Below are positions 5,744 to 10,371 of a stretch of 64,000 nt of DNA, one piece after another. The stretch lies in the NCBI RefSeq assembly GCF_003334405.1, contig NZ_QOWM01000001.1, one strand, 5' to 3'. Position numbers and translations under genes: made by a program. Origin of the DNA: Escherichia coli (GTDB lineage Bacteria > Pseudomonadota > Gammaproteobacteria > Enterobacterales > Enterobacteriaceae). The stretch's first letter is position 1. Every line of letters starts with the position of its first letter. The notes under the pieces were generated by a model, which was given only the letters and a program-made list of their open reading frames with translations, had not been told where the DNA came from and ran no database searches.

Positions 5744-8700
5744 TTAGTCATTTTTCTGACAGAAAACAGCAATCTCCTGGTCCAGCTCTGCAATGTGTTC
5801 TTTTACAGAGTTCAGCAACTGAAGAATTTCAGGCTTACTGTCATCTGAAACAGGTGTTATTTCTAACTGATGGCTAATATTAATCAACTTTTGCAAATTC
5901 AGGATGTTAGCCGCACCGTGGATGCGATGAATACACTGATGGAAAGTTCTGTTATCGCCAGCTTCTAGTGCTTGAAACGCAGCGGGTAGATCTTTATGCG
6001 TTTCATGCTGGAAAGTCATGAGAATCTCCTGCATCAGTTGTAGATCGTTCGCCGTATTATTTTTCAGGGCTTCGATATCAAGGTGGCGATACTGAGGTGC
6101 AATATGCGCAACTTGGTGTAACTGACTTAAATGTGTTTTCAGTACATCCAGGGTCAACGGTTTGAACAAACATAAGTTCATGCCGCAACTTAACCCTTTT
6201 TCACGTTCGTTAGCCTGTGCGTTGGCTGTAAGCCCCCAGATGGGTAAGGAAGAATTTTGCTCACGGAGTTTGCGAGTCAACTCAAAACCATCCATATTCG
6301 GCATATTAACGTCAGTAATAAGCAGATCATAATGTTGCATACTGACTTTGTGTAGCGCTTGCACACCATCAGTGGCTTCATCAACATCATATCCTAATAG
6401 ATTTAGCTGGCGTTTGAGTAATAGCCTGTTGGTCGGATGATCATCCGCGATTAATATGCTCAACTTTTCAGGTAGTGTGATGGGTTGTTCTGCTTTTGCC
6501 TCGACAGTCGCCACTTGCTGGCTAATTTCTACCGGGATTGTGATCGTAAATGTTGTTCCTATGCCTGGATGACTTTCTAATGACAAATCGCCCTGCATAT
6601 TTTTAATTAATTCTTTGCAGATCATTAAGCCTAAACCAGAACCTGTTTGCTGACGACCTGCACTTGTTTGGCTGTAGCGTTTAAACAGTTGTTGTTGTTC
6701 TTCCTGCGATAATCCACTTCCAGAATCCATAATCGTCATTTTGATAACAGCGTGGTTGTCATCAATGTGACCCAGGGAGGTCGTAATTTTTACTGCCCCC
6801 TCGGTGGTAAATTTGAGAGCATTACTCAGTAAATTTGATAAGACCTGCTTAAACGCCTGAGGGTCGATCTTAACCAGGTAATGTTCAGGAAACGTACTGC
6901 TGCAACTTAATGCGATCGATTTGCTTGCAGCAATCGCACCGAAAGAGTGACAAGTGTTCTGGACTAAAGTAGGGATATCGACCCATTGTGGTTGAAGTTG
7001 ATAGTTACCCGATTCAATTTTGTCGACATCAAGGATTTCACCAATTAAGCCGAGGAGTGATTGTCCGGTGGCGTAGGCAAGTGAAATCGCCTCCACCCGT
7101 TGCTCCTTGCTAAGACCAGAACCCGACAGAAGTTCCAGGAAGCCCATAATAGAGCTTATTGGTGTTCTTATTTCGTGACTCATCGTTGCCAGAAACTGAC
7201 TTTTTGCTACGGTAGCCTTTATCGCTTTATTTTTTTCTACCTCGAGTGCATTAATTAGATCACGCGTTTCAGTAATATCTTGCCAACCACAAATATATAC
7301 TGCATTGTCACTTGCAGGAAGATTGCATAATGTATGCCAGTGATTAATGCATCTTTTCTCGATGCCATTATCAATTTCAAATACCTGTGTGTATATTGTT
7401 CGATTTTCTTTCGTTTCTGCTGTGACTTCATGCGCATTAGAAAAAACATCTTTAAAGGGTGAGTCACTGTTTTCTAATGGTAACATTGCATTTTTGTAGT
7501 AATCCGCAGTGAAATAATGTTCAAAAGCACTATTATGACTAATGACATTACCTTGCCAGTTTACAACATAAGTTGGATTCGGTAAGGAATCCGAGAGTGC
7601 TTTTCGGAATGATATTTGGTTTTCTAAATCACCCTGAATGACTTTACGACGACGAACTGAGCGTAACAGGTAGAATCCCCATAAAAGGCTACTGCCAACT
7701 AATAAAACGGATAATGTCGTAACAATATAAAATTGCTCGCTATATAGGTCCCATGTGTCAATGGTCACATTGGGCATTTTAATCCATTTTTCCGTCAGGC
7801 GCAGAACTTCGCTTGGGGGAATTGCATTCAGTGCTTTATTAATAATATCCTTAAGTTCCGGTTCTCCGCGAGGAAAAGCGAACGAAAGCGATGCATTCGG
7901 AACGCCAGGAATAAGAAAATGATAAAGTTCATTAGGATAGTAATGATCGATCATGTAACGCGAATTTAGCTGTGTCGCGACCAGAGCATCAAGTTCACCT
8001 TCCTTAACCTTGTGAAATGCAGCGCTGGCATTATCGACCTGTATCCATTCAACCTCCGGATACATCTCTTTTAATTGCGAATGCAGCTCATAATAATATG
8101 GAATGGCAACTTTCATTCCTTTTTTTAATGTTTGTTCACTGTCAGGCGCTTTTTGCATGACAAAAACGTAAGGCGTTGTTATGAAGGCTTCAGCAAATAA
8201 AACATTATTTTCTCGATCTTCACTATAAATAGCGCCAGGTATTATATCCCATCCTCCGGGGCTAAGCTGTGTTCCAGCATGGATATTGTGTGAAACGGTG
8301 ATCGGAGAAAAATTTAAACCTGTTTGCAAGGTAATAATATTAAGAATGTCCCCCATAACGCCCCGAACCGAGCCATTTTCATCCGTCATAGAATAGGGGG
8401 GCGAGTAAGGATTTTCCAGCACCTTTAAATTGGGATGCTGCTTAATCCACTGTTTTTCATGTTCAGTGAGTTCTAATGGTTTGTTCAGAAAGGCCAGGTT
8501 TCCTGTATCAAGCCAATTTTGTGATACTTCATAGCGAACTTCATTTGTTAAAGCATCAACAAATCTATTGAGTACTTCATTAAGAATGACAGATTCTTTT
8601 CTGGTCAAGAAAAAATTATATTGACGCGGCGAGTTATAATATTTCACTACATTTAAGGAGTGAGTGAAATAGCGGGAAATCATACTGCTGGTAATGATGT

Positions 8701-9337
8701 TACTACCAATAAAGTAATCATTGTGCCCAGCTGAGACGGATGCTAATGCCTGATATAAATTTGTAAAAGAGATAATTGTTGCTTTTGGAAATGATTGATG
8801 AATTACCTCGTCTGGGGGGTAATTTGCTACCCGAGCAATATTTACTGGTTTTGGTGAGGTAAGCGGTCGCATTGAGTCGTGAAGGGTGGTTACCAGCGCC
8901 GGAAAGGTAATTATCAATGGTTTGGTTGCAGCAATGTCATTATTAAGAGGCGGCGAAGTAACTAAATGTGATAACACTATATCGACTTCACCTTCTGCAA
9001 GCGCGTCCATTGCTTTTTGATGATCTGCGTATTCCCGGAGTGTTAATTTGATATTTAACGCTCTTTTTAAAAGATTTAAATAATCAGCATTAATACCACG
9101 AACCCGTTGCTGCGAATCGGTATGCAACAACGTAGCCGTTTGGGACTTATGTACTGCAATCACAAGATTTTTTTTGCTCGCTAACCAACGTAATTCCTTG
9201 TTGCTCAGACGTAGTGGATCAAGTGTGACACGGTTGTTACTACTGATGCCACGATATTCGATGTAATCTTCGTCTGCGAAACTTATGGTCGACCAAAGAC
9301 CACAACAGAGAAGAAAAATATAGGGTAAAAACTTCAT
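5744..9337 (-). CDS. evgS: Hybrid sensor histidine kinase EvgS (periplasmic binding-protein domains, HisKA/HATPase, receiver, HPt)
   Basis: 1197-aa ORF with signal peptide, H-box MSHEIRTP, receiver domain (LIADDHPTNR) and C-terminal HPt; adjacent to evgA. Confidence 0.95.
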   Translation of the reverse strand: MKFLPYIFLLCCGLWSTISFADEDYIEYRGISSNNRVTLDPLRLSNKELRWLASKKNLVIAVHKSQTATLLHTDSQQRVRGINADYLNLLKRALNIKLTLREYADHQKAMDALAEGEVDIVLSHLVTSPPLNNDIAATKPLIITFPALVTTLHDSMRPLTSPKPVNIARVANYPPDEVIHQSFPKATIISFTNLYQALASVSAGHNDYFIGSNIITSSMISRYFTHSLNVVKYYNSPRQYNFFLTRKESVILNEVLNRFVDALTNEVRYEVSQNWLDTGNLAFLNKPLELTEHEKQWIKQHPNLKVLENPYSPPYSMTDENGSVRGVMGDILNIITLQTGLNFSPITVSHNIHAGTQLSPGGWDIIPGAIYSEDRENNVLFAEAFITTPYVFVMQKAPDSEQTLKKGMKVAIPYYYELHSQLKEMYPEVEWIQVDNASAAFHKVKEGELDALVATQLNSRYMIDHYYPNELYHFLIPGVPNASLSFAFPRGEPELKDIINKALNAIPPSEVLRLTEKWIKMPNVTIDTWDLYSEQFYIVTTLSVLLVGSSLLWGFYLLRSVRRRKVIQGDLENQISFRKALSDSLPNPTYVVNWQGNVISHNSAFEHYFTADYYKNAMLPLENSDSPFKDVFSNAHEVTAETKENRTIYTQVFEIDNGIEKRCINHWHTLCNLPASDNAVYICGWQDITETRDLINALEVEKNKAIKATVAKSQFLATMSHEIRTPISSIMGFLELLSGSGLSKEQRVEAISLAYATGQSLLGLIGEILDVDKIESGNYQLQPQWVDIPTLVQNTCHSFGAIAASKSIALSCSSTFPEHYLVKIDPQAFKQVLSNLLSNALKFTTEGAVKITTSLGHIDDNHAVIKMTIMDSGSGLSQEEQQQLFKRYSQTSAGRQQTGSGLGLMICKELIKNMQGDLSLESHPGIGTTFTITIPVEISQQVATVEAKAEQPITLPEKLSILIADDHPTNRLLLKRQLNLLGYDVDEATDGVQALHKVSMQHYDLLITDVNMPNMDGFELTRKLREQNSSLPIWGLTANAQANEREKGLSCGMNLCLFKPLTLDVLKTHLSQLHQVAHIAPQYRHLDIEALKNNTANDLQLMQEILMTFQHETHKDLPAAFQALEAGDNRTFHQCIHRIHGAANILNLQKLINISHQLEITPVSDDSKPEILQLLNSVKEHIAELDQEIAVFCQKND

Positions 9338-9341
9338 GTGG

Positions 9342-9956
9342 TTAGCCGATTTTGTTACGTTGTGCGAATGTGTAAAGATCCATCAGTGATTTACATTCTA
9401 ATTTTTCCATCAGGCGACTTTTATAAGTGCTGACAGTTTTGTTGCTGATGAACATTTTTTCAGCAATGTCATTATTATCCTTGCCATCAAGAATATACCG
9501 CATGACACTAATTTCTTGTTTCGATAAGGAGTCGAGTTTTTGCTGGTCGGACGTTAAACTTCCAACAAACCGGTTGAGAGAGAAGGGGAAATAGCAGTAG
9601 CCATTTTTTGCAGCTTCAATAGCCGCAATGATATTGTTCATGCCTTCTTTTTTACTCACGAAACCATTAGCGCCAGCATCAGCACAATGTTTCCCGTAAA
9701 AATGGTCATTTTTAGCGGAGACGATAATAATAATTCCGCTATATTGGCGCTTCCTCAGCGTTTCTAACACCTGGATACCGTTAACTCCGGGGATATCGAC
9801 ATCAATGATGACGATATCAGGCTTAAGTGTTTCCACCCGCTGAACGGCACTTCCGCCTTCAGTCAACTCTGCTAAGATTTCAATATCGTTTTTGATCAAT
9901 AAATTACGAATTGCTGCGATAGCAAGAGGATGGTCATCAATAATTATTGCGTTCAT
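9342..9956 (-). CDS. evgA: Response regulator EvgA (NarL/FixJ family)
   Basis: 204-aa ORF MNAIIIDDHPLAIAAIRNLL with receiver and LuxR-type HTH; 4 bp upstream of evgS. Confidence 0.95.
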   Translation of the reverse strand: MNAIIIDDHPLAIAAIRNLLIKNDIEILAELTEGGSAVQRVETLKPDIVIIDVDIPGVNGIQVLETLRKRQYSGIIIIVSAKNDHFYGKHCADAGANGFVSKKEGMNNIIAAIEAAKNGYCYFPFSLNRFVGSLTSDQQKLDSLSKQEISVMRYILDGKDNNDIAEKMFISNKTVSTYKSRLMEKLECKSLMDLYTFAQRNKIG

Positions 9957-10180
9957 AGATTATTCCCTTTGCAATGAAGCATCTCCCTTCTCCCTGTAGT
10001 AATACAGACATAAGGCGTCATCTCATTTTCTCAATAAAAATAAGAAAATCTGAGCTTCCTTTAAGATAATTCGACAAGTATACCATATAAATAGTCGGCA
10101 TAAATGAAATGTCAACAATAAAATCAGGGATTGTACCGATGATTTATAGTTTCAAGTTGGCACTATAAGTCTTCTTACTA

Positions 10181-10198
10181 ATCCTACAGGCGTAAGAA
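10181..10198. promoter_or_regulatory. Candidate EvgA box (ATCCTACA-GG-CGTAAGAA) in the evgA/emrK divergent promoter region
   Basis: Near-palindrome read directly with one mismatch per half-site to the consensus; an additional TTCTTAC half-site lies at 10173-10179. Confidence 0.45.
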
Positions 10199-10371
10199 TT
10201 GTATTGCAAAAGCCACGGTTTAGTCCTCTGTTGTTTTTTTTGCACCTCATTTAAATTAGGCCTCCAACGTTCCTGGGATAATGTGCAACACATGCACTGT
10301 GTTTGATATGAAGAATGAATGCTCTTTTCATTCAATTCATAAATTTCATCTATGAGAAATGAGAGATAATA

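Follow-up and report, generated by a model that had tools for sequence, protein, structure and literature searches.

The spacer between evgA and emrK spans positions 9957-10371 of the window, by which we mean the whole 64-kb stretch of Escherichia coli DNA that was analysed. Both the list of open reading frames and the K-12 annotation give it a length of 415 bp and set it between divergent genes, evgA on the minus strand and emrK on the plus strand, as the first-pass annotation had described. The surrounding reading frames, which run in the window in the reverse of their K-12 orientation, are:

5744-9337, minus strand: evgS (open reading frame list, K-12 annotation)
9342-9956, minus strand: evgA coding sequence, a response regulator of 204 aa (open reading frame list; K-12 b2369)
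10144-10335, minus strand: a 63-aa open reading frame with a TTG start, spurious
10372-11535, plus strand: emrK coding sequence, with a GTG start (open reading frame list, K-12 annotation)
11535-13073, plus strand: emrY, directly after emrK

By alignment the spacer is identical to that of K-12 MG1655, and it was matched in 5,399 of 5,426 complete E. coli genomes, with 100% identity in many of them; among the 5,442 spacer matches of the E. coli genome search, 20 were to records typed as plasmids. Its G+C content is 34%, against 40–42% across the evgSA-emrKY cluster (5744-13073) and 49% over the window. H-NS binding has been flagged within the spacer (PMC3946193), and CpxR binds it and represses emrKY in an avian strain (PMC9913434). 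When the sequence around GTAAGAATTGTATT was judged by eye for the CpxR consensus GTAAA-N5-GTAAA the spacing was wrong, and a CpxR box was not placed. An Rfam scan of 9800-10500 returned just one meaningless sub-threshold snoRNA match, and a simple sigma-70 scan did not find a convincing promoter. The suspicion that the 63-aa open reading frame is probably spurious was borne out: in-frame stops interrupt it in three of five other E. coli strains (CUVET19, M1/5 and F1053) and in two more divergent sequences (L002 and L003, described below), and no annotated feature lies under it among the matches listed (12 of 5,419 RefSeq records).

The spacer contains a strong candidate binding site for EvgA, together with a neighbouring heptamer that the first-pass annotation had taken for an additional half-site:

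10181-10198, unstranded: EvgA box ATCCTACA-GG-CGTAAGAA, the primary dimer site (chance expectation and conservation)
10172-10178, plus strand: TTCTTAC, the supposed half-site, in K-12-type sequences only (elsewhere TTCTCAC or TTCTCAT)

The 18-bp repeat ATCCTACAGGCGTAAGAA lies exactly at 10181-10198, with two mismatches to TTCYTACANNTGTARGAA, and matches 14 of the 16 specified positions of TTCYTACA-NN-TGTARGAA. This motif, as TTCPyTACA-N2-TGTAPuGAA, is reportedly that of Masuda & Church 2003; PMC3720670 cites the same authors for the yfdX and frc repeats. Boxes with no more than two mismatches are not expected by chance in a sequence of this kind: two were found in the window against an expectation of 0.02, and none of 100 shuffles reached two. 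The other is the perfect box TTCTTACAGTTGTAAGAA at 188-205, which lies in the yfdX-frc spacer 260 bp upstream of the frc ATG (~457) and carries on its gene side CA at +9/10, TCTGATT at +26 and TATTCT at +54 (positions here and below being counted outwards from the box). The centre of the emrK box (10189.5) is 182.5 bp upstream of the emrK GTG. Conservation was assessed in an alignment of eight sequences. Six are the window itself, O157:H7, a B2 strain and three further E. coli; the other two are L002, which represents a divergent lineage of Escherichia, and L003, a contig that bears the label Yersinia vastinensis and has the same emrYK-evgAS gene order. Throughout the alignment the block CCTACA-nG-nGTAAGAATTGTATT-nCAAA is invariant, with the half-site parts CCTACA and GTAAGAA unchanged in 8/8, and the box is closer to consensus in the divergent lineages (no mismatches in L002, one in L003). 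Across E. coli, a 36-mer of box and flank (10179-10214) is identical in 4,884 of 5,418 records (90%), and the three single-mismatch variants sampled alter the spacer (10190) or the flank (10200, 10212), never the half-sites. The half-sites are under purifying selection, and the box is real, selected and directional. It is a genuine EvgA-type operator, being statistically unexpected, conserved and followed by the same fixed downstream architecture as other EvgA targets; the sequence and position first proposed for it were exact. Direct binding of EvgA to the emrKY promoter is credited to Kato 2000 in PMC8174306, PMC9496106 and PMC5706723, and emrKY induction is EvgA-dependent (PMC5706723, PMC6393483, PMC8174306, PMC9496106). 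Papers searched for the literal motif yielded unrelated matches only, and a literature search covering EvgA ChIP or SELEX and a massively parallel reporter preprint turned up nothing on the emrK box.

It is otherwise with the heptamer TTCTTAC, which lies one base to the left of the position first given for it (10173-10179). Six copies occur in the window where 5.66 are expected. With GTAAGAA (10192-10198) it makes up a perfect inverted repeat with 7-bp arms, the spacer of which, at 13 bp, differs from the 2-bp spacing of the EvgA dimer site; its start lies 9 bp from that of the left half-site, which fits neither the 10-bp dimer spacing nor the 20- and 42-bp spacings of the secondary sites described below. 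All seven aligned sequences that are not of K-12 type, L002 and L003 included, have C rather than T at 10176. The K-12-type 36-mer (10163-10198) is identical in 2,538 of 5,418 records (~47%) and absent from ~53%; its O157-type counterpart, which has C at 10176, matches 1,428 of the 5,418 exactly, and most of the remaining records are one mismatch further away. Because both divergent lineages carry C, the T at 10176 is a derived, strain-specific allele and not a conserved part of the operator. The proposal that a half-site repeat forms part of the operator is not supported, given a derived base found in ~47% of records, a position out of phase and a frequency equal to chance.

What distinguishes the two sides of the box is the sequence beyond it. 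On the emrK side we recognise:

10201-10208, plus strand: weak same-orientation half-site GTATTGCA at +3 to +10, its CA at +9/+10 invariant in six E. coli boxes
10223-10230, plus strand: weak same-orientation half-site GTCCTCTG at +25 to +32, about -41 to -34 of the predicted promoter
10252-10257, plus strand: predicted emrK -10 element TAAATT at +54 to +59, in the TANNNT register
10303-10331, plus strand: alternative constitutive emrK promoter TTGATA-17-TTTCAT, as predicted in PMC3946193 and located here by sequence

Six E. coli boxes from the window and K-12 loci (emrK, frc, safA, ydeP, yegR and the proximal yfdX box) were anchored on the 18-mer and oriented toward their genes. Five columns on the gene side are then invariant, namely CA at +9/+10, TC at +26/+27 and T at +31, and none on the opposite side, a result reached by 0 of 20,000 random six-sequence stacks; as the safA/ydeP and frc/yfdX flanks agree at 27/40 and 20/40 positions and may be partly paralogous through duplication, inflating the apparent conservation, the relevant figure for four sequences chosen against possible paralogy is P=0.003. 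Each bona fide box bears the signature on exactly one side, and it was found at none of the chance boxes with up to four mismatches in ~170 kb of sequence. It is present too at box-like repeats adjoining evgA homologues in Klebsiella (L005) and Enterobacter (L006); in the latter, the divergent neighbours of the evgA homologue are EmrA/EmrB-family genes. Scored in the forward orientation with a half-site weight matrix, the gene side, and it alone, peaks sharply at +3 (mean -1.9) and +25 (mean -2.7), where other positions average about -13; this places the weak half-sites 20 and 42 bp downstream of the left half-site, and a TANNNT hexamer begins at +53/+54 in nine of ten independent EvgA-type boxes, which 0 of 5,000 circular shifts matched. 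A composite scan of the 64-kb window recovered the frc and emrK sites only. At emrK itself, CA at +9/+10, TCY at +26–28 and TANNNT at +53/54 all lie on the emrK side of the box and none lies on the evgA side. The TCY core of the +25 half-site is invariant across EvgA-type promoters and emrK orthologues, and L003 has TAGAAT at +53, one base earlier than TAAATT. The +26 to +34 element was also tried as a -10, with the box at -41.5 or -49.5, and was rejected, A -11 or T -7 being unconserved in either register. From TAAATT at its fixed +54 position one expects emrK transcription to begin near 10264, and the sequence predicts an EvgA-dependent start at ~10263-10267 with the box centre near -74. The alternative constitutive promoter has altered spacing in L002 and is absent from L003. 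Downstream of the predicted start, the fold of the 5' UTR is not significant (z = -1.24); an invariant GTTCC at 10269-10273 is complementary to GGAAC at 10374-10378, at and just after the GTG, and the two pair in the minimum-energy fold. At pH 5.8, emrK belongs to the genes whose translation efficiency falls most (PMC10746267).

Set beside the rest of the EvgA regulon (ydeP, safA-ydeO, yegR, yfdX and frc), emrK has the 18-bp inverted repeat in common, as well as CA at +9/10, TCY at +26–28, half-sites at +3 and +25 and TANNNT at +53/54, and all of these boxes, emrK included, lie upstream of EvgA-induced operons. The emrK box differs in its two mismatches, A at outer position 1 and C at inner position 11, both of which are T in the divergent lineages, and in its +25 element (TCCTC) and -10 (TAAATT), which are weaker than those of most regulon boxes and among the weakest of the set. 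Unlike the others, it lies between divergent operons, one of which encodes its own regulator. Such an arrangement is also found in the autoregulated CpxA-CpxR two-component system, where cpxP and cpxRA are divergent target and regulator genes; in both cases a response-regulator operon runs divergently from a direct target with a regulator site between them, although evgAS is reportedly uninduced and its box geometry is one-directional. Two further configurations were seen. In the K-12 yfdX-ypdI spacer, two EvgA boxes 38 bp apart (L001 14501-14518 and 14539-14556) apparently point in opposite directions, the weaker proximal box with the full signature toward yfdX and the better distal box with TCTTATA, and TATTAT at +53, toward ypdI. 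In Hafnia alvei (L004), the evgAS homologue is divergent from an AdiC-like arginine/agmatine antiporter gene, another acid-resistance target adjoining the regulator, and between them lies the box-like repeat GTCCTACGTATGTAGGCG (L004 3565-3582) with its signature shifted by 1 nt.

The evgA side of the spacer is occupied by a leader, promoters and post-transcriptional control sites; evgL, the evgA promoters and the CsrA sites had been overlooked by the first-pass annotation:

9953-9982, minus strand: evgL leader open reading frame, nine codons, MLHCKGNNL (K-12 b4781), its TGA overlapping the evgA ATG (ATGA)
9957-10070, minus strand: evgA 5' leader, from the published sigma-S start at -114 from the ATG (PMC11210196)
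9964-9966, 9984-9986, 9991-9993 and 10057-10059, minus strand: GGA motifs, the CsrA sites, located in the sequence and matching the description in PMC11210196
10077-10082, minus strand: -10 element TATACT of the sigma-S evgA promoter, ending 7 nt before the start at 10070
10084-10115, minus strand: predicted sigma-70 evgA promoter, TTGACA (10115-10110) with TTATAT/TATATG (10090-10084)
10130-10135, minus strand: -10-like hexamer TACAAT from the alignment, at +46 from the box and outside the EvgA register
10144-10168, unstranded: palindrome TTATAG-N13-CTATAA, an inverted repeat with arms invariant in 8/8 and a variable spacer

The evgL open reading frame and its ATGA overlap are present in all eight aligned sequences, with MLHCKRNNL and MLHFEGNNA as the divergent forms, and evgA translation is coupled to evgL (PMC11210196). 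Fusion coordinates in the same paper (-114 to +7, with the evgL ATG at +89) map the sigma-S evgA start to 10070; an RpoD SELEX study gives sigma-70 hexamers for evgA identical to those listed (PMC3946193). The hexamer at 10130-10135 is elsewhere TATAAT, TATCAT, TATTAT or TATAGT, so that T1, A2 and T6 are constant and the middle varies, the pattern expected of a real -10 element, and it may mark an upstream evgA promoter with a start near 10123. The palindrome may be the site of a regulator or a pair of -10-like hexamers facing opposite ways. The octamer CTTATAGT recurs at the same offset (+12 to +19, on the non-gene side) beside the K-12 safA box (L087). In E. coli NCTC10444 (L092), an IS1 element is inserted in the spacer at the equivalent of ~10135, immediately before the evgA promoters; fimbrial genes take the place of the EvgA box and emrKY, and evgAS is intact. 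Among the evgA-bearing sequences, the 590-kb contig labelled Yersinia vastinensis (L003) encodes an EvgA 94% identical to that of E. coli, which suggests transfer or mislabelling, and a 398-bp contig labelled Rhizobium cauense (L007) is 100% identical to E. coli evgA, probably through contamination.

It had been proposed that phosphorylated EvgA, acting at the box together with TTCTTAC, activates emrKY and positively autoregulates evgAS from one shared operator. The position of the box between two divergent operons invites this reading, evgA homologues in Klebsiella, Enterobacter, Buttiauxella and Hafnia are preceded by EvgA-like boxes, the conserved -10-like hexamer at 10135-10130 is on the evgA side, where it could still be responsive to the box, and autoregulation is to be found in the literature: a survey lists EvgA as auto-activating from a single site on evidence graded weak, citing Tanabe 1998 (PMC3219618), and EvgA has been 'reported to be autoregulatory' (PMC11210196). 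Against this, activation of EvgS leaves evgA reporters and mRNA unchanged (PMC8174306, PMC11210196, PMC6393483); PMC8174306 states, citing Eguchi 2003, that evgA expression 'is not autoregulated', evgA is not induced when EvgS is active (PMC11210196), and it is unchanged in macrophages (PMC6393483). Geometry points the same way. Because the published start maps to 10070, the box centre is 119.5 bp upstream of it; the EvgA-promoter signature is wholly absent from the evgA side, which is also without secondary half-sites by weight matrix, and the -10-like hexamers there begin at +14 (TATAGT, 10167-10162), +46 (TACAAT), +91 and +99, none at +53/54. In Klebsiella, Enterobacter and Buttiauxella, too, the signature faces the side opposite the regulator gene, and both divergent lineages, like ~53% of E. 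coli records, lack the TTCTTAC component. The box is thus not placed as a site that activates the regulator's own promoter would be. With no signature on the evgA side, a start 119.5 bp away and no reported induction of evgA, autoregulation from a shared operator is not supported, and we consider the two-way reading unlikely; its emrKY half stands, on the literature and the signature.

A different arrangement on the emrK side would have EvgA act in the Class II manner of LuxR-type activators, the box overlapping the -35 position at a centre of -41.5, with TTTAGT (10219-10224) as the -10 and a start at ~10231. In its favour, all EvgA promoters share the T at +26 (10224), which might serve as the -7 T of such an element, and yegR has a perfect TATAAT at +21 to +26. 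Yet position +22, where the critical A at -11 should stand, varies among the six boxes (T, T, C, A, A and G), some of the resulting hexamers, ACCAGT and CTCTCT among them, are no -10 elements, and the positional -10 signal at +53/54 is far better, which leaves this geometry distinctly improbable. That the box is incidental, with EvgA acting elsewhere in the spacer or emrKY induced indirectly, is scarcely credible given a chance expectation of 0.02, strong conservation, a composite architecture in common with other targets and the direct binding described in the literature.

Taken together, the region is best read as the known divergent control region of evgL-evgAS and emrKY, containing a one-way operator for emrK and a TTCTTAC heptamer for which evidence of function is lacking, a reading to which we give a probability of about 0.8. 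Under this one-way reading, phosphorylated EvgA, a NarL/FixJ-type homologue of BvgA, would bind 10181-10198 as a dimer and activate emrKY, as the literature holds, and the architecture of the sequence would make the operator a one-way module aimed at emrK. The weak half-sites, the last of which adjoins the -35 position, suggest that additional EvgA protomers are bound beyond the strong site in the direction of RNA polymerase, which they would recruit. On the other side, evgA would be driven from sigma-70 and sigma-S promoters 90–120 bp away (start 10070); its control is post-transcriptional, through evgL and CsrA (PMC11210196), and not measurably through the box. The wider proposal is more tentative, one we hold possible without favouring it: that EvgA-family promoters from E. 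coli to Klebsiella and Enterobacter follow a rigid, directional composite plan, with the inverted repeat at about -74, half-sites 20 and 42 bp downstream and the -10 at 53–54 bp from the box, and that the evgA/emrK operator is strictly one-way. There is a precedent in Bordetella, where Boucher, Stibitz and Hinton are said to have described at Pfha a heptad TTTCCTA and BvgA dimers near -88.5, -67.5 and -45.5. The half-site core TTCYTA is similar, and in both systems a strong inverted repeat far upstream is followed by weaker, phased sites (~20–22 bp) running to the -35 region. The two differ in that the emrK primary site is predicted near -74 and that the secondary sites at emrK can be recognised by their promoter-distal halves only, the binding of multiple EvgA dimers there being suggested by the sequence. 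EvgA was named after its homologue BvgA (PMC9496106).

It is worth noting that the EvgA operator and its control region are already known, that the composite architecture may already have been described in the primary footprinting and start-site papers, and that the side-result on promoter geometry is modest. Two readings should nevertheless not be carried forward from the first-pass annotation, those of a 'half-site repeat' and of a 'shared autoregulatory operator'. In their place there is a sequence rule (box, CA, TCY and a -10 at +53/54) that orients EvgA-type boxes and predicts the emrK start. If the composite plan is true, it would imply that several dimers spread in the manner of BvgA, the sequence would tell for any EvgA or KvgA box which way it points and what it targets, and the T at 10176, which makes a better extra half-site in ~47% of strains, could alter EvgA occupancy. 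The control of emrKY by EvgS and EvgA is relevant to acid adaptation, to bile and drug efflux, and to the survival of Shigella in macrophages.
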